Shown here: piece by piece, positions 6,244-54,539 of the stretch | Layout of the letters: the number at the start of each line of letters is the position of its first letter | Position numbering within the stretch: the stretch's first letter is position 1 | Assembly (NCBI GenBank): GCA_900543165.1 | Contig: UQQQ01000003.1 | Coordinates: 283-64,282, forward strand | Direction of reading: 5' to 3' | Source: an uncultured Dialister sp. | GTDB taxonomy: Bacteria; Bacillota; Negativicutes; Veillonellales; Dialisteraceae | DNA length: 64,000 bases | Program-made: the position numbers and the translations under genes | Notes under the pieces: generated by a model | Database searches by the model: none | What the model was told of the DNA's origin: nothing | Seen by the model: only the letters and a program-made list of their open reading frames with translations

Positions 6244-8905
6244 CTGTGACGAAGGCGAAGGATGTCAGCGTCACGGCGGAGAACAAAGGCTCGAATCTTT
6301 CCATGGCGGCTGCGGGCGGCAAGGGGCAGACCGTTGCCATCGACGGGACAGTCAATGTCAACCGTTTCGAAAACACCACCAAAGCCACGGTCGGCAAAGC
6401 GACCATCAACGCAGACGGTGACGTCAGCGTCAGTGCTGAGGACAATAGCAAGACCATCAACATCGGCGGTGCGATCGCTGTCTCCGAACAGGCAGGCATC
6501 GGCGCCACCGTCGCATACAACCACATCGACCGCCAGACAGAAGCATCGCTCCAGGGGAAGGTCACTTCTACGAAAGACGTCTCCGTCACCGCCAAGAACA
6601 CCGGCGCGATCTACGCCATGTCCGCAGCCGGCGGTGTCACCATGGATAGCACCGAGGCGAACGGCGCAGGCAGTACCGGTCTGAAAGCACAGGAAGGTGA
6701 GGACAGCCAGAGCACCTCTTCGATCGGCGAACTGGCAGAAAAACTGCTGAACGCAGGCAAGTCGGACAAAGATAAGAAAGAGATCCAGAAAAGCGACTCC
6801 GCACTGGACACCATCGCAGGAAAAGATGCGTCCATGGGTGAGAACGTCGGCACCGCAAAGGGCGGCTTTGCCACGGCGGCGAATGTCTCCGTGAATCGTA
6901 TCACCGATACGGCGAAGGCGTATACGAAAGGAAATATGGTCACTGCCGATGCGCTCGCCATCCGTTCCGGCAATGACAGTAAGATCACGACAGGCGCGGG
7001 TGCGATCGCCCTCGGCCTCTCGCAGAACAGCAGTGCCATCGCAGGGAGCTTCATGTACAACGCCATCACGGACAAGAATGAAGCCTATGCCGAAGATGCA
7101 GTGCTGACGCTCCAAGGCAGCGAGAAGGAAGACGCTTCCCTCACTGTCGAAGCGGACAACGCGGCGAAGATCACAAATATCGCAGCGAGCGGCAGTGGTG
7201 CGGCAAAGGGCAGCGCCATCGCGGGCCAGATCAGTCTGAACTGGGTGGATAATGAAACCGACGCCCATGTGAAGGGCGGCCGTCTCACTGCGGATGAAGC
7301 GGCGACCATCGCGGCCAAAGACCGCGGCACCATCGACTCCTACACGGGCGCGGTGGCGATTTCCGCTGGCAATAATGGAGCGGCGGTGGGGGCGTCCATC
7401 GCAGCAAACCTCATCGAAGGGGAAACCACCTCTTCGCTCGAAGATACCACAGTGAACAGCGGCGGCGCCCTCTCCGTCACCGCGGATGAGACCAGCCAGA
7501 TCCAGTCCATCGTGGCGGCCTTCTCGGCGAGCGGGAACTGGATCCACACGAAGACGGATGCCCATATTTCCAATGACAATACCATGAAGACAGGGGCGCT
7601 CTCCGTCCTGGCGAAGAATGGAAGCAATGCGACACTCGGCGTCGGCAGTGCGGCTGTCGGAGGAAACTCCGCCGGCGCATCCATCGGCGTTATGGTGAAC
7701 CAGTCGGAAGTCGCAGCTACGCTTACCGGCGATAAAGATAAGAATCATACCATCACCGCGGACGGCATCACTGTACAGGCGGATAATGCGTACAATGGCG
7801 CGGCTTCGGATACAGATGATAAGACTGCTAGGACCGTCGCTGTCGGCTTCGCTGGCGGCACCTCGCAGTTCGCGGGCTCCGGCTCTGTCACGGTGAATGT
7901 CATCGACCAGAAGACCGATGCGACTATCGGCAAGGGCAAGTACGATGCAGGGCGAAAGGCGGCTCAGGTAGGTGCGACAAGCACCGCGAAGCTCTTCGGC
8001 CTCGCGGGCGGCGCGTCCCTCTCCGCGGGAAGCGGTATTGGCGCAGCTGTCGACGTCCAGACCTACAACGGTCACACCTATGCAGGCATCGCCGACGGTG
8101 CGTCCCTGAAAAATGCGTCCTCCGTCACCGTGAATGCGGACTCGAAAGAACACCTGACCTCTGTCGCAGCGCCCCTCGCCGGCGGAGCCGGTACTTTCGC
8201 AGGGGCAGGGGCAGCTGGCGCACACTCCGTCTCGACCGATACGAAAGCGTATTTGGGCCAGAGTGAAGTGACGGAGGCCGGTGATGTCTCTGCCACCGCC
8301 AAGGATGAAACGGAACTGAAAACCGTCGCAGGCAGTGGTGCTGCCAGCGGAAATACCGGTGTCGGTCTCACCGCAGCGGTCGAAGTGGTGAACAAAAAAG
8401 CTAGTGCGATCGTGGGTGACGATGTGAAAGTGACAGGCAGCAGCCTCACCGTGAAAGCAGAAAACACCAGCAGCAGCGTGACCAGTGCTGCCGGTCTCGG
8501 TGCCGGCGGTACGGCAGGTCTTGCCGGAGCGGCATCGGAAACCTTCATGAAGCAGGAAACCGATGCACATGTCGGCAAGAATGCGAAAGTTACCGTCAAG
8601 AAGGGCGCGGAGATTCTTGCCGATTCGAAGTTTACGCAGGGCGCGGCGGCGGGCAGCGTCGGTGCGGCGGGAACGGTCGGCATGGGGCTCACGAATTCCA
8701 CGGTTTCCTTCACGGGAGACACCGCCGCTTATGCGGATGAGAACGCGGTTATCGATGGCGGGGAAAAAGTCAATATTTCCGCAACCCAGCTGACGAAGGT
8801 AGACTATGGCACGGTCGCGGGCGCGGTGGGCGGCACGGCGTCTCTCTCCGGCACCGTGGGTGTCAATGCGCTGAAGACGACCACGAAAGCCTATGCAGCA
8901 GCCAG
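6177..8905 (+). CDS. TpsA adhesin fragment 3/7.
   Basis: Frame 0 (…AALGGAALTVHQKNTAEATVEDGVTV…). Protein-like text ends near 8905, and the track ORF runs on into junk until 9035. Confidence 0.55.
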
Positions 8906-33799: not shown

Positions 33800-34490
33800 T
33801 GGCGGGGGTTAGCCCTTGGGGCGTGCCGTTCCTTGATTACGTTTGAAAGCCTCGATTGAATGAGAAATTAGAAATGAGAAATACGAAATGGTGGTGCGGC
33901 GCATAAAAACAGGGAAGCGCCGCAGAGTATAGATAATGGCGATGCCCGAAGGTGGTATTTAGTCACCAGTCACTAGTCACTCCTAATCCCTAGTCACTAG
34001 CTACCAGTCCCCAGTCACCAGTCACTTCTCCTCATTATACCCTCTTTTCCCTTCTTGTGCTAAAATAGGATGGAATGGCAAAAGAGCTTTTGCCATTCGG
34101 TATAATCGTTTCGGCCCGGGACAGTGTCTGTTCACGGGTCAGGTGAATTCTATATCGCCAGAGATATAGAAAGCGCAGCATAGAGATGGAGTTAGAAGTT
34201 AGAAGTGGTGGTGGTGGCGGCTTCGCCGCAATTATATATAGGGTGATGCCCGCTTGTGTCTTTCAAGCCTTAAAAACAAGGTTTGAAAGCAGGGATGAGT
34301 GGCTAGGGATTAGGGATGAGAAGCAAGCGGTGATTGAAGTAGCGCAGTTAGCGCGCTGACCGTTCTGCAAGGAGGATCTCTCGGCTACGCTCGAGATGAC
34401 GATGCGCGTGAAGCGCTATTAAAACTCCGCGGTGCTCTATTATTTTTTTGCGCCGCTCCTGCATTTCTCATTTCTAATTAGCTCTCTATG
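33800..34490. repeat. Composite repeat block upstream of the McrBC-like module.
   Basis: Module A, heptamers, GGTGGCGGCTTCGCCGC hairpins and a partial TCTCGGCTACGCTCGAGATGACG module. Confidence 0.75.
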
Positions 34491-44649: not shown

Positions 44650-44945
44650 CGGTAGAGCAGGGATTGGAAATAAAAAAATCCGTCCCTCGACTGAGGGACG
44701 GATACTGGTTCCGCGTTACCACCCTGATTCCTGAAGGATATGACTATCCCAGGCGCTCTACAACGTACAAACATACGCGTTTCCTGTAACGTGGAAATGA
44801 CGTCGGCGCTTAATAGGTTTCAGCACCGCACCTCAGGGATGATTTTCATATGTCCTGTCCTGCCGGATTGCACCAGACTCCGGCTCTCTGAGAAGATCTC
44901 GGAAATACTACTCTTTCCCTTCAAAGGGTTTTCTTCGTGTGAAGA
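44650..44945 (-). promoter_or_regulatory. T-box riboswitch leader with sigma70-like promoter (TTGACA 44977-44982, TATAAT 44953-44958) and terminator (44672-44704).
   Basis: On the minus strand: the T-box sequence AATCAGGGTGGTAACGCGG (plus 44711-44729); an AGAGA/GUA stem I; a candidate specifier loop ...GAAAAUCAUCCC (AUC = Ile, tentative); and a terminator hairpin ATCCGTCCCTCAGTCGAGGGACGGAT followed by a U-run. Confidence 0.75.
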
Positions 44946-46049: not shown

Positions 46050-46059
46050 GGGGGCTGCG

Positions 46060-46615
46060 CCAATTAGAAATGAGAAATGAGAAATTAGAAATGGTGGTGG
46101 CAGCTTCGCTGCATTTTAGATGATGGTATTCCCGTATCGTCAGCCTTCCCCTCGAGGGGAAGGTGCCCCGAAGGGGCGGATAAGGCACAGGCGGCATGAA
46201 AGAGAGCGGGAAGGAGCGTCTCAAGTCGACGATTTACGAAAGCACCCGAGCGCCGCTCCGCGGTCCCCCTTCCCCGATGGGGAAGGCTAAGAGGTGCGAC
46301 GCTTCGCGTCGATTTTTTATAAAGGGCGATGCCCGAAAGTGGTATTTAAGTCACTAGTCCCCAGTCCCTAGCTACTCATCCCTGCTTTGAAACGTCAGGG
46401 GTTGTGGTGGCGGCTTCGCCGCATTTTAGATGATGATACGAGGGAACCTGCTATCAAGAGCCCTTCGGGCATCGCCCTGTTTATACTCCGCGGCGATGCT
46501 GATTTTTATGCGCCGCACTACCATTTCTCATTTCTCATTCAAGCGAGGGTTTCAAACGTAATCAAAGGGCGACTCGCTCCACGGGCTAACCCTGAACCCT
46601 ATATTTTCCCCAAGG
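46060..46615. repeat. Composite repeat block (module A, full GC-hairpin module 46110-46350, heptamers, and inverted module A).
   Basis: Near-identical to 20936-21195 and 27826-28030. Confidence 0.8.
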
Positions 46616-48780: not shown

Positions 48781-48912
48781 AAATGATAGTTAACTTCAAA
48801 TGTCAATATATGTTGACAAATAAAGAAGGCAAGAAGGGATCAGACGAAGAGACTGGAAGACATCTGAAGTCAAACGTCTTCCAGTCTCCATTTTTCCAAA
48901 GGAGTGACACCA

Positions 48913-49671
48913 TTGTTGTACAGTGTAAAGATGCGTTCGAGCCTTGGCGGCTCACATGGCGTGGGGGGACGCCATATTTCCGGAGCCGAAAGGATCGTGC
49001 CCGAGGATGGACTCGAGGAGCAGGTGATCGCCATGCTGCGCCGTGCGAGGATGCACGAGCGCGGGCGAGCCGATTTCATTCAGGTGAAAGTGGAAGAGAT
49101 CAAAGAGAAAGACATCATGACCTGCCCGCTGATCCCGATGTACCAGATGAATACCGTAACGAAGGACGAGGGGCGGCAGGCTGCGAGGAAGGAGCTTCTC
49201 CGCATCGGTGTCAGCAAGACCGCGGTAGAGAGTGCCTTCCGTGAGCTGGAATCTTTGACTGACAGCATGCGCGGGGCGATCGTGATGGATGCGGTGACGG
49301 GCGAGCGTCTCGATGACCGCGCCGAGCGCGGTGTGCGCTGCAGCAACATGGACTGCGAAGATACGGCGCTCTATGAAGCGCGCATGGCAGAAAAAGGGCT
49401 CGGCGGAGATCATCCGCGCGAAGCCCTCGTCCTCGCCTCGAAGGTGGCCTATGGCCCCGGCACGGTCGCCGAGCTCTGCTGGTCGGATGATCCGGACTAT
49501 GTGACAGGCTATGTGGGCTCCAAAAAATTCGGCTATGGACGTATCACTGTCATGAAGGACATGGGGGATCCCGTAGGCGGCCGTGTCTTCTTCGTCGAGC
49601 ACGGCACCGATGCGGCGGAGTATGACGACTATATGCAGAATCAGGTCGTGCTTGTGCGGATGGGAGAGTAG
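48913..49671 (+). CDS. bioW: 6-carboxyhexanoate-CoA ligase (pimeloyl-CoA synthetase) BioW.
   Basis: Strong similarity pattern to B. subtilis BioW (YSVKMRSS…HISGAERIV…AELCWSDDPDYVTGYVGSKKFGYGRITVMK…). TTG start with AAAGGAG. Confidence 0.75.
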   Translation: MLYSVKMRSSLGGSHGVGGRHISGAERIVPEDGLEEQVIAMLRRARMHERGRADFIQVKVEEIKEKDIMTCPLIPMYQMNTVTKDEGRQAARKELLRIGVSKTAVESAFRELESLTDSMRGAIVMDAVTGERLDDRAERGVRCSNMDCEDTALYEARMAEKGLGGDHPREALVLASKVAYGPGTVAELCWSDDPDYVTGYVGSKKFGYGRITVMKDMGDPVGGRVFFVEHGTDAAEYDDYMQNQVVLVRMGE

Positions 49672-49965
49672 GGACTGGTGGCTAAGAGATTAGGAGATTA
49701 GGAGACTAAGAGACATCAGACTCTCGTATCGTCATTTCGAGCGTAAGCGAGAAATCTTCCTTGCAGACCGAAAAACGAAGGATGTGTGAAAGTAGAAATA
49801 CGTAGCACAAAGGCGTCGTTTCCCTGCAGTGCCCATGTGATACTGACGCAGTGCAAGAAAGACCCTCGGCTGCGCTTTCGATGACGACGGCGCGAAGCGC
49901 TATCAAAATTCCGCGGCGCTTAGATCCTTCGACTCAGTTCTCCTATTTCAGATAAGCCATTATTT

Positions 49966-50129
49966 AAGGAAACGCTGATTCAATCGCAGAGTCAGCTTCC
50001 ACAAGAATTTTTATACATAGCTTCGTCATAACCTTCCTTAAATAGCTCGCTATTCGCGTCAGGTTATTCCTTGCTATGCCTAAAAATTCAAGAGTAAAAT
50101 CTGACAATGATTTAATCAGTGTTTCCTTA
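49966..50129. mobile_element. MITE (~164 bp) with 21-bp imperfect TIRs AAGGAAACGCTGATTCAATCG / AAGGAAACACTGATTAAATC.
   Basis: A second full copy is at 51521-51684. A right half is at ~53075-53146, a left part at 27769-27836, and a 47-bp hairpin mini-version at 52623-52669. Confidence 0.7.
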
Positions 50130-50304
50130 ACATACGACGTTTTTCTCCGTTCAGGATGACGAAATGCGCCGTACCACCCCGCTGAACCTATAGAACCCTT
50201 TGAACCTATAGAACCTATAGAACCCGCTCCCCCTCTTTTGCAAACAATCAAAGAGCGCCCTGCCCGCGGGCTAATCCTGAACCCATTTTTAGTGAGGTAT
50301 ACCC

Positions 50305-51462
50305 ATGAAACTACAAGACATTCCATCAGCACTGTCCGCCATTGCGGACGAAGGCCGTTTCCGGCGGGTCGAAGACCTGCGGATGGTGACGGCATCCCGC
50401 GGCATGAGGCGGGACGGGAAGGAATACATCGTATTCAATTCCAATGACTATCTGGGCATGACCCATGAAAGCGAAGTCATGGCGGCCGCGCGGCGCGCTG
50501 TGATCTATGGCACCGGTTCGGGCGGTGCGCGGCTGACCTCGGGCGCTGTTTTCGAACTCTCCGAGCTGGAGAAGGCGCTCGCGGCTTTCAAGCACGCAGA
50601 AGATGCGGTGATCTTCAATACAGGCTATATGACGAACCTCGGCGTCCTGTATGCGCTTGCCGGCAAGGGCGACGTGATTTTTTCCGATGCGTTGAATCAT
50701 GCGAGCATCGTGGATGGCTGCCGGATTTCCAAAGCGAAGGTCGTCGTCTATGCGCACTCCGATATGGAGGACCTCACCCGGCTTCTGGCCGAGACGCCCT
50801 GCGAAGGACAGCGCTTCATCGTGACCGATGGCGTTTTTTCCATGGACGGCGACATCTGCCCGTTGCCGGCGCTGCTTTCTTTGAAAAAGAAATACGAGGC
50901 CTGCCTCATCGTCGATGATGCACACGGCGTGGGTGTCATCGGCGACACCGGACGCGGCACGGCAGAGTACTATCACGAGAGCGGCATCGACATCCAAGTG
51001 GGGACGCTCTCCAAGTCGCTCGGCGCCGAGGGCGGCTACGCGGCGGCTTCGAAGGAGATCACGGACTATCTCAGGAATGCCTCCCGCCCCTTCATCTTCT
51101 CCACCTCGATCTCTGCCGTGACAGGAGCGAGTGCGCTGGCTGCGCTTCGACTTCTGGAGGGAAATCCTTCTCTCTACATGGGACGGCTCCGCTTCAATAC
51201 CGCTTACATGAAAGCGAAGCTCTCAGAAGCCGGCATCCCCGTTCTTCCGGGCGATACGTCCATCATTCCGATCGTCATCGGTGATGAGAAGCGGACGCTC
51301 GCTTATGCAGAGGCCTGCCGCGAAGACGGCATCCTTCTCTCTGCCATTCGCCCGCCGACGGTACCCGCCGGTACGAGCCGCATCCGCCTCACCGTCACCG
51401 CCGCGCACACGAAAGATGAACTCGACCGCGCGGCGGAAGTGATGAAGAGGCATTGGAGGTAG
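50305..51462 (+). CDS. bioF: 8-amino-7-oxononanoate synthase BioF (PLP-dependent).
   Basis: 385 aa. PLP lysine region …GTLSKSLGAEGGYAAAS… Located downstream of bioW. Confidence 0.75.
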   Translation: MKLQDIPSALSAIADEGRFRRVEDLRMVTASRGMRRDGKEYIVFNSNDYLGMTHESEVMAAARRAVIYGTGSGGARLTSGAVFELSELEKALAAFKHAEDAVIFNTGYMTNLGVLYALAGKGDVIFSDALNHASIVDGCRISKAKVVVYAHSDMEDLTRLLAETPCEGQRFIVTDGVFSMDGDICPLPALLSLKKKYEACLIVDDAHGVGVIGDTGRGTAEYYHESGIDIQVGTLSKSLGAEGGYAAASKEITDYLRNASRPFIFSTSISAVTGASALAALRLLEGNPSLYMGRLRFNTAYMKAKLSEAGIPVLPGDTSIIPIVIGDEKRTLAYAEACREDGILLSAIRPPTVPAGTSRIRLTVTAAHTKDELDRAAEVMKRHWR

Positions 51463-51520
51463 AAAGGGTTCAGGTTGGCGGGTTCAGGGTGGGGTTACGC
51501 CAATTAGAAATGAGAAATTG

Positions 51521-51684
51521 GGGAAACGCTGATTAAATCGCAGAGTCAGATTCTACAAGAATTTTTATACATAGCTTCGTCATAGCCTTCCTTAAATAGC
51601 TCGCTATTCGCGTCAGGTTATTCCTCGCTATGCATAAAAATTCAAGAGTAAAATCTGACAACGATTTAATCAGTGTTTCCTTAG
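51521..51684. mobile_element. MITE copy 2.
   Basis: GGGGAAACGCTGATTAAATCGCAGAGTCAGATTC…GATTTAATCAGTGTTTCCTTA. Confidence 0.7.
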
Positions 51685-52072
51685 AAATGCGAAATGAAGG
51701 TGGCGGCTTCGCCGCAAGTATATATGGGGCGATGCCTGAAGGCTTTATGAGCGGATGCTATTCTCGTATCGTCAGCCTTCCCCTCTAGGGGAAGGTGCCC
51801 CGAAGGGGCGGATAGGGTGACTATGGTATGAAAAACAGATGAGAAAAGCGGAGGGGTGCGCGGCACATACGGGAAAAACGTGCGCCTCTGACCGCGAATG
51901 ACAAAGCTTTCTCGCTTCGCCCGAAATGACGATGCGGGAGTCTCCCCGTCTCTTAATCTCCTAGTCACCAGTCACTAGTCCCTGGCTACTCATCCCTGTT
52001 TTCAAACTTAGCCCCAGAGGCTAACCCTGAACCCGCTATCCCCGTCCACCCATTTTCAAAAAGGAGAAAATC

Positions 52073-52576
52073 ATGCAAAATGAAAAGGCCATCAGCGCCA
52101 CCAGTGAAAGAAAACTCATCATCGACTGCTGTGAGACTGCGCTCCTTGCAGTCCTGATCGCCGTATCCGGTACCTTCCGCATCCCTGGCATCGTGCCCGG
52201 GACGGAGTTCCAGCTCTCCGCACCGATCGCCGTCGCGATCTGCGGTGTCTTCGGCTTCAAGAAATATATCACGGCGGGGATCCTCGCTTCGCTCATCGGG
52301 CTCTCACTCGGGACAGCGACGCTCCTCAATGTGGCGATCCAGATGTCCTTCCGCTTGGGCGTCGGTGCGCTTTGGCTTGTGACCGGGTCAAACAAACTCT
52401 TCTACATCATTTCCGGCCCCATTGGCACAGCGCTCGCGCGCGTGGTGATGTACTTCCTCCTTGGCAAGGGCCTCACCTTGATGCTCATCGCCGCAGCACC
52501 CGGTATGGCTTTCACCGCCGCGACCGCGTGGATCTTTGCGAAGGTATTCAAGCGCTGCCGGATCAGCGGTGAATGA
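52073..52576 (+). CDS. Small polytopic membrane protein (ECF-transporter S-component-like).
   Basis: 167 aa, 5-6 TM. RBS AAAAGGAGA. It lies next to the biotin genes, but BioY motifs are not convincing. Confidence 0.4.
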   Translation: MQNEKAISATSERKLIIDCCETALLAVLIAVSGTFRIPGIVPGTEFQLSAPIAVAICGVFGFKKYITAGILASLIGLSLGTATLLNVAIQMSFRLGVGALWLVTGSNKLFYIISGPIGTALARVVMYFLLGKGLTLMLIAAAPGMAFTAATAWIFAKVFKRCRISGE

Positions 52577-52622
52577 GAGCAGAGATTAGTGACTGGTGAC
52601 TGGTAGCTAGTGACTGGGGATT

Positions 52623-52669
52623 AAGGAAACGCGGATTCAATCGAACAACGATTGAATCCGTGTTTCCTT
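52623..52669. mobile_element. Mini-MITE / solo TIR pair forming a perfect hairpin.
   Basis: AAGGAAACGCGGATTCAATCGAACAACGATTGAATCCGTGTTTCCTT. Confidence 0.6.
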
Positions 52670-52769
52670 AGAATTAGAGACTAGGAGACATCAGACGGTC
52701 AGACATTTATTTCTAATCCCTAATCCCCCGTCCCCCGTCCCTGGTCACTATATTCCCCTCATAAATCTC

Positions 52770-52990
52770 CTTGACAAGCCTGTTCGTATAGAGTATTCTT
52801 TTGGTCGTAGAGAAAGGGCGGAGCAGTATCCCCGGGAGCTGTATCCGAAAAAGCCCTGACGCCGCACGACAAGTATCGCTTGGATTGTCACTGACCGAGA
52901 CGAATGTACAAGAGCTGCATCCTCTTGGGATGCCTTTTTTATGGCTGCACGCAAAGAGCCGCATTCCTTTTGGAGTGCGGCTTTTTTTAT
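52770..52990 (+). ncRNA. Candidate structured leader or sRNA: promoter (TTGACA…TATTCT), a closed stem GGTCGT…ACGAC, then two tandem intrinsic terminators.
   Basis: GCATCCTCTTGGGATGCCTTTTTTAT and AGCCGCATTCCTTTTGGAGTGCGGCTTTTTTTAT. The class is not recognised. Confidence 0.35.
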
Positions 52991-53294
52991 AATTAGGAAT
53001 GAGGAATTAGGAGGAATGAGGAATTAGGAATGGTGGTACGGCGCATCATCATATGAAGGCGCCGAAGTTTTAAAGAAATACTGATTTCTCGCCATGTATA
53101 AAACTTCAAGAGTAAAATCTGATAACGATTTAATCAGTGTTTCCTTAAGAAAATATCCATTGCTTTTGGCATCGCCCGGTTTTATATTCGCGACGCTTCT
53201 AAATTTTATGCGTCGCACCTTCATTCCTCATTCCTAATTTATGCCATTCGGCATGGATGACAAATGATGCGTTCTTTTTTGAAAGGAAATCCTC

Positions 53295-54539
53295 ATGTTT
53301 TACATTGAAAGCGCTGCACCGGTGAAGAGCCAGGCAGCAGCCAGCGGACTCAAAACGAGCCGCCTCACCTTCTGTGAAGCGGCGATGATGATCGTCGGAT
53401 CCACCATCGGATCCGGTGTATTAGGACTTGCGTATGCTTCGCGGAGAGCGGGCTGGCCGGTGCTTGTCATCTGGCTTGCCGTGGCGGCTTTGATCTCTGC
53501 GGTTTCTATGCTCTATGTCGCCGAGGCATCGCTTAGGACACGCCTGCCCCTGCAGCTCTCGGGGCTTGCCGAGAAGTATATCGGCAAAGCCGGCTCTTGG
53601 CTTCTCTTCTTCGCGGTGGGGGCGACGAGCTTTTGCAGCCTCATCGCCTATACGAATGGCTGCGGGAAAATCCTTGCAGACCTTCTGGGGATTTCCTTCG
53701 AGGCGGGGAGTCTGCTCTTCATCCTGCCTGCGGTCGGCGTCATCTGGTTCGGCCTCAAGGCGACGGGCGTCGCGGAGAAATTCATCAGCAGCGGCATGAT
53801 CGCGATGCTTCTCGTGCTGGCTGGCGCTTCTTTCCTCTCTTCACGCGTGCCGGTGGGGGATATCCTCTACGCGGACTGGACGTATGCGATGCCGATCTTC
53901 AATATCACGGTCTTCTGCTATGCGGTGCAGTACATGGTGCCGGAAGTCGCGCGCGGCTTTGCGCACCAGCCGGGGAAACTCGTGCCGTCGATCCTCGCGG
54001 GCTTTGTGATTTCCTTCGTGATCCTTGCGATCGTTCCGCTCTCTGTCTTCCTGATGCTGCCGCTCTCAGAAATCACTGAGGTCGCGTCGCTCTCCTGGGG
54101 CCGGGCGCTTTCGCATCCGATCTTTTACCTGCTGGTGAATGTATTCGCCTTCTGCGCGATGCTGACATCCTTCTGGGTCATTTCGGAAAGTTTCTTGACG
54201 AACATGGTCGACCAGTTCAAGCTGAAGGATGAATTCCATGTCCCGACCAGGATCGCGATGCTCGCCTTCATCGTCCTTCCGCCATTCCTTCTTGCCTTCT
54301 TCGGCGCGGTGAGCTTCGTGAATGCCATCTTCTTCGCGGGGACGTTCGGCGGCATCATCATGTCCATCCTCCCCGTCTTCATGCTGCGGGGAGCCAGGAA
54401 ATCGGGAGATATGGATCCCGTCTGGACCTGCGGCTGGATCGCCGCCCGTCCGATCCAGCACCTCCTCATCGTCATCTTCTCCGCGGCCGGTCTTTACGCG
54501 CTGGCCAGCATGGCAGGGATGCTTCCGGCGGGATGGTAG
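53295..54539 (+). CDS. HAAAP-family amino-acid permease (aromatic amino acid/serine transporter-like).
   Basis: 414 aa, 11 TM, …IGSGVLGLAYASRRAGWP… RBS GAAAGGAAA. Confidence 0.6.
   Translation: MFYIESAAPVKSQAAASGLKTSRLTFCEAAMMIVGSTIGSGVLGLAYASRRAGWPVLVIWLAVAALISAVSMLYVAEASLRTRLPLQLSGLAEKYIGKAGSWLLFFAVGATSFCSLIAYTNGCGKILADLLGISFEAGSLLFILPAVGVIWFGLKATGVAEKFISSGMIAMLLVLAGASFLSSRVPVGDILYADWTYAMPIFNITVFCYAVQYMVPEVARGFAHQPGKLVPSILAGFVISFVILAIVPLSVFLMLPLSEITEVASLSWGRALSHPIFYLLVNVFAFCAMLTSFWVISESFLTNMVDQFKLKDEFHVPTRIAMLAFIVLPPFLLAFFGAVSFVNAIFFAGTFGGIIMSILPVFMLRGARKSGDMDPVWTCGWIAARPIQHLLIVIFSAAGLYALASMAGMLPAGW

Follow-up and report, generated by a model that had tools for sequence, protein, structure and literature searches.

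A 159-bp MITE family with IS5-type ends and a well-preserved hairpin in human-gut Dialister

The bioW-bioF locus and its repeat copies

The window (the whole stretch of 64,000 nucleotides of Dialister DNA that was analyzed) has a G+C content of ~55% and carries a T-box leader, and its intergenic regions are dense mosaics in which heptamer arrays and dozens of repeat families crowd together. A full copy of a short inverted-repeat element, one of five copies of the same MITE within the 64-kb window, is located in the spacer that separates bioW (48904-49671) from a bioF-like gene (50305-51462) and lies inside another repeat module of ~130 bp. A sequence-only reading of this DNA had described a MITE family with terminal inverted repeats, and all of its sequences were found where it had placed them, with the 21-mer AAGGAAACGCTGATTCAATCG recovering 8 matches in the window at ≤3 mismatches versus 0 in 100 shuffles. 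That reading had given the full copies ~164 bp and terminal repeats of 21 bp. The copies stand, although their boundaries had to be moved: an alignment (A2) of 15 full copies from the window and Dialister genomes places the MITE proper at 159 bp, GGAAAC...GTTTCC, and the outer "AA" and "TT" belong to the target duplication. The terminal inverted repeats are 18 to 19 bp long (GGAAACGCTGATTNAATC), invariant across the 15 aligned copies, and 16-17/19 complementary in copy 1. The features discussed below are as follows.

49964..49967, unstranded: left target-site duplication TTAA of full copy 1 (read directly; same 4 bp at 50127-50130)
49968..50126, plus strand: full MITE copy 1, 159 bp (sequence, alignments, long-hairpin fold)
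49968..49985, plus strand: left terminal inverted repeat of copy 1, GGAAACGCTGATTCAATC (comparison with ISBmu2 and the L077 insertion sequence)
50014..50080, plus strand: conserved MITE core (alignments A2 and A4, 74-sequence alignment, covariance model)
50071..50100, plus strand: promoter-like TTGCTA-18-TAAAAT in the right arm, directed outward to the bioF-like gene (consensus scan only)
50109..50126, minus strand: right terminal inverted repeat of copy 1, reverse complement GGAAACACTGATTAAATC (sequence, alignment)
50127..50130, unstranded: right target-site duplication TTAA of copy 1 (read directly; empty-site comparison)
51518..51521, unstranded: left target-site duplication of full copy 2, TTGG, decayed from an original TTAG (read directly)
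51522..51680, plus strand: full MITE copy 2, 159 bp, followed by the TTAG duplication at 51681-51684
52625..52667, unstranded: 43-bp mini copy, a perfect hairpin (flanks TTAA at 52621-52624 and TTAG at 52668-52671)
53074..53144, plus strand: 71-bp internally deleted copy with both ends kept (TTAA at 53070-53073 and 53145-53148)
27767..27770, unstranded: target TTAA of the truncated copy, holding the TAA stop of a GSP_synth-family gene (sequence)
27771..27839, plus strand: truncated copy, left 69 bp of the MITE (left flank TTAA; no right flank, fused)
29548..29677, plus strand: paralogous empty site, the uninterrupted form of the repeat module that hosts copy 1 elsewhere (92% over 131 bp)

The two full copies are ~96% identical over their entire length, and copy 2 lies 59 bp downstream of the bioF-like gene. 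They contain neither a transposase gene nor a long open reading frame, the sole open frame being a micro-ORF of 16 to 21 codons. The conserved core reads, in order, as a stem, the loop CTTCGTC, a hypervariable 7-bp stem, an apical hairpin TCCTTAAATAGC-TCGC-GCTATTCGCGTC with its loops, and ATTCCTYGC.

The shorter copies are of three kinds. The 43-bp mini consists of 19 nt of the left end and 24 nt of the right end and lies, as had been described, in a 47-bp palindrome (52623-52669) that folds with a perfect 22-bp stem (DNA folding energy, -23.9 kcal/mol; z, -10.8); minis of 33 to 49 bp also occur in three other Dialister loci (L028, L054, and L116). Two further stretches, at ~53075-53146 and 27769-27836, had been called half copies. 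Their sequences are confirmed; that label does not hold for the first, in which a degenerate left terminal repeat, AGAAATACTGATT, is followed directly by the final ~55 bp of the right arm, so that both ends are present in 71 bp. The second is a 69-bp left end, fused to a GGTGCC(C/A)CGAAGGGGCGGATAGGG repeat module at a common TCGTCA(T)AGCCTTCC stretch. The mini, the 71-bp copy, and the fused copy would be later products of internal deletion or short-homology recombination. Together with the mosaic repeats, the MITE inflates intergenic regions, e.g., the 634-bp spacer inside the bioW-bioF pair, and recognition of the family prevents false gene, small RNA, and CRISPR-like calls.

Target-site duplications and nested insertion

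In the 15-copy alignment, the sequences immediately outside the 159 bp are TTAA/TTAA six times, TAAA/TAAA twice, and CTAG/CTAG and CTAA/CTAA in other copies. Since CTAA and TAAA are not palindromic, these 4-bp flanks are target-site duplications rather than an extension of the inverted repeat. The terminal-repeat scan had demanded "AA" before the repeat and was biased in that respect; hence, the metagenomes were rescanned via the central motif ATAGCTCGCTATTCGCG. This end-independent scan yielded at least 142 full copies, nearly all of 158 to 160 bp, at no fewer than 126 distinct sites in gut-metagenome and Dialister contigs, bearing out the expectation of further copies. A perfect 4-bp direct repeat flanks 68 of the 126 distinct sites listed (54%), the remainder being mostly one base off, and target-site duplications, the other predicted signature, are thereby established. 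Among the sites listed, the duplications are CTAG (32 sites), TTAA (20 sites), CTAA (8 sites), and TTAG (3 sites), i.e., YTAR. A preference for YTAR targets is a hallmark of the IS5 group.

The proposed nesting of the MITEs in larger mosaic blocks could be examined directly for copy 1. When its flanks are joined via a single TTAA, they give an uninterrupted module of ~130 bp, which is matched across the junction at 29548-29677 in the window and is also found at five places in four Dialister loci (L028 twice, L052, L054, and L059). The empty site reads ...AGCCGTTTTTTAACATACG..., and the filled site reads ...AGCCATTATTTAA[MITE]TTAACATACG.... The single TTAA in the paralogous empty site thus demonstrates both the duplication and the nested insertion of copy 1. 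Comparable settings are seen for copy 2, which sits in a tract of the heptamer GAAATTAGAAATG that recurs as uninterrupted GAAATTAGAAATG tracts elsewhere in the window, and for the mini, which sits in a tract of GGGATTAAGGATTAG with an uninterrupted counterpart at 30630-30650. The heptamers of the window (CTAGTCC, CTAATCC, GAAATTA, and others) are rich in YTAR, which would explain the location of the copies inside mosaic blocks. Mechanistically, the copies would have moved by cut-and-paste transposition, performed in trans by an IS5-group transposase that recognizes the terminal repeats, with insertion favoring CTAG-, CTAA-, and TTAG-rich heptamer arrays and the stop codons at gene ends.

An instance of the latter is the truncated copy. 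The GSP_synth-family (ATP-grasp) gene at 26475-27770, whose nearest named homolog is from Dialister, ends in a TAA stop (27768-27770) lying directly before GGAAAC. The sequence-only reading had put this stop inside the terminal repeat; it does adjoin the element, but it belongs to the duplicated target TTAA. Orthologs of the gene in three other Dialister species (72 to 82% identity) have their terminal codon at the same position, where it is TGA with no MITE, and are followed by short, repeat-free spacers. A MITE end abuts a gene stop codon in 5 of 17 Dialister copies and at 10 of the 126 sites in the larger listed set. As YTAR includes a stop codon (TAA or TAG) and the left target stays intact in the duplication, such insertions leave the protein unchanged, and the target rule would explain the adjacency to stop codons.

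Distribution and fixation in Dialister

The repeats are a real MITE family, found in human-gut Dialister-like genomes at well over 100 intergenic sites that are unrelated to one another. The window copies, copy 1 among them, are 92 to 97% identical to copies in "Dialister sp." genomes, with which the window also has other repeat modules in common. Within the species, we used the identical BioF-like protein as a handle: it recovered 285 assembly-index blocks, of which 10 places were fetched, comprising ENA metagenome assemblies and one NCBI genome. The four MITE copies near bioWF, including copy 2, occupy the same positions in all 11 strains (the window and the 10 fetched), with 3 to 4 variable sites per copy. 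Among the 10 other strains, we recovered no empty sites and no presence/absence polymorphism. The identical positions in 11 strains indicate that the family is fixed in the species with no sign of recent movement, and it is probably old and no longer mobile there. We found no paper describing Dialister MITEs in the searchable literature; the 159-bp family is a new one within a well-known kind, the insertion sequence (IS)-derived bacterial MITE.

A hairpin maintained through compensatory change

As a type of element the MITE is ordinary; its hairpin shape is unusually well preserved. Copy 1 folds as one long hairpin, with RNA folding energies of -54.6 kcal/mol on the plus strand (z, -8.7) and -67 kcal/mol on the minus strand (z, -9.5). 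In the 15-copy set, 16 of 54 pairs have changed on both sides, compared to 7.7 ± 1.6 in shuffles (0/500 reach the observed value) and 0 to 4 in slid controls. The larger set comprises 74 nonredundant copies of 67 to 97% identity, and for it the shuffles, which do not correct for common ancestry, and the slid controls gave the following comparison: 94.9% of cells are paired (shuffles, 85.0 ± 0.3%; slid controls, 26 to 42%), double changes are seen in 29 of 49 pairs (shuffles, 19.3 ± 1.4; slid controls, 8 to 14), and cells with double changes number 409 (shuffles, 130 ± 12; slid controls, 23 to 49). At several pairs, three or four Watson-Crick types occur, and the central 7-bp stem differs in nearly every subfamily and remains complementary. 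Mean consensus identity is 0.91 in the internal loops (17 search nucleotides excluded), 0.77 in the inner stems, and 0.93 in the terminal repeats.

The full-length hairpin is kept through many compensatory substitutions, and a passively decaying selfish MITE predicts neither loops more conserved than stems nor 29 of 49 covarying pairs. Its retention may reflect selection on "master" copies for transposition competence; the hairpin may also have a role for the host at the RNA or DNA level, by analogy with the Correia or ERIC elements (see below). If functional, its maintenance offers a tractable case for studying MITE co-option or the substrate needs of short DDE transposons.

Covariation can, however, arise without selection if intramolecular template switching or gene conversion repeatedly homogenizes the two arms of a long quasi-palindrome. 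Mutation through quasi-palindrome correction is well established; in the mini, one private change is found in both arms (GCGGATTC/GAATCCGT), and the hairpin remains perfect; and chimeric copies with mismatched arm subfamilies show that exchange between copies occurs. Such homogenization should nevertheless erase asymmetric internal loops, yet the loops are the best-conserved part of the core, both across subfamilies and in a related element at locus L050; accordingly, we regard it as a possible, if somewhat doubtful, source of the pattern.

A different explanation holds that the MITE functions first and foremost as a structured RNA, or as a DNA/RNA hairpin bound by protein, and is spread or retained through its use by the host, e.g., as a signal for mRNA processing or stability, a protein sponge, or a small RNA, its transposon ends being secondary. 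This would accommodate the pairing and double compensation in the 74 copies, the same trend in the end-ascertained 15-copy set, and the greater conservation of the unpaired core than of the stems. The minus-strand loops are purine rich, and A·C cells, which correspond to G·U on the minus strand, number 88 versus 59 G·U cells. Moreover, a covariance model trained solely on the 67-nt core of Dialister copies detects diverged cores in other, Negativicutes-like genomes: that of a terminal-repeat-bounded element at L050 scores 56 bits (E = 1e-11), and those at L027 and L104, from an uncultured Veillonellaceae genome, are only marginal, at 22 to 24 bits. (The cores of Clostridial MITEs sharing the same ends look similar by eye, but we did not adopt them as homologs, the model failing to detect them at E ≤ 1.) Against a primary RNA or protein-binding function, Rfam returned nothing relevant at gathering score for the whole window and, at E ≤ 1 for 49600-53400, only a chance-level match to a miRNA family (26.9 bits versus a gathering score of 72). 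We found no promoter or terminator that is conserved in the MITE: the promoter-like TTGCTA-18-TAAAAT, with 9/12 consensus matches, is a weak site of one subfamily whose -35 part is not kept in all subfamilies. An apparent orientation bias relative to genes, 13 to 4 in 17 copies, was not upheld at the 126 listed sites (33 co-oriented versus 24 anti-oriented in tandem contexts). Substitutions within the species strike the core and stems alike, the shuffle control is uncorrected for common ancestry, and the target duplications, the IS5-type ends (see below), and the empty site mark the element as a transposon whatever else it may be. We therefore consider a primarily functional hairpin unlikely.

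We grade in much the same way, as an improbable though specific proposal, the narrower idea that in the Dialister/Negativicutes branch the MITE carries a selected structured core of 67 nt, comprising the apical hairpin, the hypervariable 7-bp stem, whose strands always remain complementary, and two invariant asymmetric internal loops, purine rich on the minus strand, which include a perfect AAGGAGG. Such a core would act as an RNA or single-stranded-DNA module (a decoy binding proteins or ribosomes, an RNase target, or a structure that the transposase needs on very short substrates), and the element would be domesticated or functionally constrained rather than decaying junk.

The AAGGAGG can also be read as a Shine-Dalgarno sequence for a minus-strand peptide of 16 to 21 aa beginning ATG ACG AAG..., MTK(L/Q)CIKIL(V/I)K(S/A)DSA(I/N). 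The frame is open in ~66 of the 74 nonredundant copies, and its entropy is highest at codon position 3 (0.69 versus 0.40 and 0.47 at positions 1 and 2); however, a frame has a 1-in-3 chance of having its most variable position third, the variable codons mostly alter the amino acid (L/H, V/I/M/A, E/K, S/A/F), the conserved codons are fixed at all three positions, which points to constraint at the nucleotide level, and the start codon, placed in the hypervariable stem, has shifted position in one subfamily. A translated peptide is accordingly very unlikely.

Relationship to IS5-family elements

A scan for the terminal repeat in one genome per species recovered >117 loci from many phyla. Most of these are lineage-specific short elements of 110 to 220 bp or solo palindromes of 27 bp, and some are the left ends of ISs in which the first codons, MKQ.SF..EY, give an InsH-like start (L010, L014, L038, L042, and L055). 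One locus, L077 from Accumulibacter, has two complete IS copies of ~1.25 kb with a 328-aa product that scores 331.8 bits on the NCBIfam model NF033581, "IS5 family transposase" (cutoff, 140), and contains the Pfam domains DDE_Tnp_1 and DUF772. The left repeat of this IS is identical to the window GGAAACGCTGATTCAATC at 17/18 positions. ISBmu2 is the closest named relative (63% amino acid identity), and its left repeat, GGAAACGCTGATTTATTC, is 16/18 identical to that of the window. In plasmid pBMUL01, ISBmu2 is found as CTAG|GGAAACGCTGATTTATTC......GATCAGCGTTTCC|CTAG, i.e., with a 4-bp CTAG duplication. ISBmu2 is described as a 1,210-bp IS5-like element with 16-bp inverted repeats and a preference for CTAA (PMC3091744). 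A tblastn search against plasmids added a degraded IS copy with related ends and an ATAA duplication from a plasmid of the gut Firmicute Subdoligranulum (L255). Sequence comparison thus shows the MITE terminal repeats to be the same as those of 1.1- to 1.25-kb ISs that encode a DDE_Tnp_1/NF033581 transposase.

An autonomous parent flanked by the same repeats had been anticipated by the sequence-only reading. Elements with the same or related ends exist, namely, ISBmu2 and the Accumulibacter and Subdoligranulum ISs, and none is present in the window or the fetched Dialister sequence: tblastn recovered no IS5-family transposase in the window, and the ~1.9 Mb of fetched loci, ~1 Mb of which is Dialister-type contigs, contained none except in the non-Dialister loci L077 and L128. 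Metagenome assemblies often break at, or lose, IS copies, so this absence is weak evidence. The metagenome matches listed for the central motif ATAGCTCGCTATTCGCG are MITE copies and fragments, with no parent IS among them, and the central ~100 bp of the MITE is not traceable to any full-length IS examined. A protein search for a gut-Firmicute transposase had only a 31-aa fragment as the query, which is too short.

The TTAA flanks of the window copies, with their embedded TA, might suggest a Stowaway-like (Tc1/IS630-type) MITE that duplicates TA, or else a piggyBac-like inserter into TTAA. Either is exceedingly improbable, given that CTAG is the commonest duplication (32 sites) in the end-independent set, that CTAA/CTAA and TAAA/TAAA occur as 4-bp direct repeats, and that the terminal repeats match ISs whose transposases are typed as IS5 family. 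We interpret the repeats instead as a nonautonomous transposon of the deletion type (a MITE) that belongs to the IS5 group of the IS5 family and has ISBmu2-like ends, a reading to which we assign a probability of about 0.9. The same 18-bp end occurs in Firmicutes, Bacteroidota, Proteobacteria, Verrucomicrobiota, Synergistota, and others, where it bounds lineage-specific MITEs and 27-bp solo palindromes, and this broad distribution shows wide seeding of small repeats by one IS5-group clade.

Comparison with known systems

Mechanistically, the Dialister MITE is closest to the ISBmu2-type IS5 elements, and in lifestyle it is closest to MITEAba12, Correia, and ERIC. ISBmu2, ISBmu23, and their relatives (IS5 group, Burkholderia multivorans) have the terminal repeat GGAAACGCTGATT... 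(16/18 identical) and duplicate 4 bp of CTAG/CTAA-type targets (PMC3091744), and the related full-length ISs at L077 and L255 have these ends in common with it. In contrast to the 159-bp MITE, which has no transposase, ISBmu2 is 1,210 bp long and encodes a 330-aa DDE transposase; the MITE interior has no recognizable similarity to it beyond a possible short GCTTCGTCAT match, and the host of ISBmu2 and Dialister belong to different phyla.

MITEAba12 of Acinetobacter, mobilized by ISAba12, resembles the Dialister MITE in having terminal repeats and a duplication length that match those of an IS, and in both only part of the copies have perfect duplications (40% versus 54% in Dialister). It has putative outward promoters (PMC6382973). 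It differs in its size of 113 bp, its 9-bp duplications, its co-resident parent IS, and its observed transposition.

The Correia elements (CREE/NEMIS) of Neisseria are likewise multicopy intergenic hairpin MITEs of ~100 to 160 bp with nested and deleted variants. They are reported to have outward promoters, a site for IHF, and a hairpin that is cleaved by RNase III when transcribed (review, PMC10969869), and this behavior is, by analogy, a plausible model for the action of the Dialister hairpin. Unlike the Dialister MITE, they have a TA duplication, terminal repeats of 26 bp, and no known parent IS, and of their functional features the Dialister MITE has only the weak, nonconserved promoter-like site. 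The ERIC/IRU elements of enterobacteria share with the Dialister MITE a long imperfect palindrome in intergenic regions; they lie in transcribed regions, and RNA-level effects on mRNA stability have been reported (PMC10969869). They differ in having no identified parent IS with matching ends, and their sequence and hosts are unrelated to those of the Dialister MITE.

The intergenic regions of the window, as mosaics of many short repeat modules, are also reminiscent of REP/BIME arrays. REPs are palindromes of 20 to 40 bp without target duplication that are linked to RAYT transposases, and we rejected an identity with them in view of the 159-bp length, IS5-type ends, and 4-bp duplications of the Dialister MITE. 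In practical terms, the MITE and the surrounding mosaics break the metagenome assemblies of an abundant human-gut genus.

Elements with the same terminal repeats outside Dialister

Searching beyond Dialister, we found families of 159- to 173-bp MITEs with the same type of terminal repeat in Clostridia and Ruminococcus MAGs (fetched loci L015, L017, L030, L031, L046, L075, L081, and L094). These Clostridial MITEs pair a left-repeat-type end (GATTAAATC) with a right-repeat-type end (GAATAAATC), as does the IS5-group element on a Subdoligranulum variabile plasmid. Their centre (TCCTTGAAATAC-GTCA-GTATTCCTGCG) resembles the 67-nt core of the Dialister MITE as judged by eye only; the covariance model of the Dialister core detected none of the Clostridial centres. 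The IS5-group elements were located as follows:

L255, 1424-2488: internally deleted, unannotated element (S. variabile plasmid OY725846.1)
L077, ~250-2740: two element copies (Accumulibacter MAG)

The plasmid element has the target-site duplication ATAA, and its record is nearly without annotation. The Accumulibacter copies are 94% identical and lie head-to-tail about 40 bp apart, with imperfect 4-bp flanks (TTAA/ATAG and CTAA/CTAT).

Possible loss of the interior and further nesting

Alistipes, Lachnospiraceae, and other genomes contain solo palindromes of 27 bp (GGAAACGCTGATTNAATCAGCGTTTCC), each bordered by 4-bp flanks (at L060, L061, L074, L078, L090, L095, and L113, besides the three loci listed here):

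L003, 3546-3572: 27-bp solo palindrome
L012, 2874-2900: 27-bp solo palindrome
L049, 93-119: 27-bp solo palindrome

Within the terminal repeat, the inner 9 bp (GATTNAATC) are a palindrome in their own right, so both element ends have a direct repeat in common; slippage between these direct repeats would remove the entire interior. Dialister-type copies at two fetched loci carry an extra insertion of ~78 bp within the left arm (CCAAGAATAAAAGGAAGG...), which is an additional level of nesting:

L163, ~8480-8700: MITE copy with insertion
L165, ~3190, - strand: MITE copy with insertion

Mosaic intergenic DNA, a T-box leader, and a possible second leader

All intergenic regions of the window are mosaics (e.g., 20600-21300, 21780-21980, 33800-34050, and 46050-46600) of at least 20 families of repeat modules, such as GGTGCCCCGAAGGGGCGGATAGGGCA, GGTGGCGGCTTCGCCGC, and ATGCGCCGCACCACC, and there are also heptamer tandem arrays (AGTCACT, CTAGTCC, AATGAGA, AACCCTG, and CTGGTGA). 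The modules recur in other Dialister genomes. bioW and the bioF-like gene are as a rule adjacent; here, repeat modules and the MITE fill a 633-bp spacer (49672-50304) between them. Measured alike, this spacer is 634 bp in the window versus 599 to 643 bp in the 10 other strains fetched.

A T-box was the sole Rfam family above threshold in the 64-kb window:

44691-44933, - strand: T-box leader (132 bits; gathering score, 93)
52820-52907, + strand: pan motif-like match (RF01749), subthreshold (31.3 versus 36.2 bits; E = 0.011)
52917-52933 and 52953-52986: two terminator-like hairpins 3' of the pan motif-like match

A Trp_Tyr_perm-family transporter gene (53295-54539) lies downstream of the latter match and both hairpins, which together could represent a diverged riboswitch-like leader.
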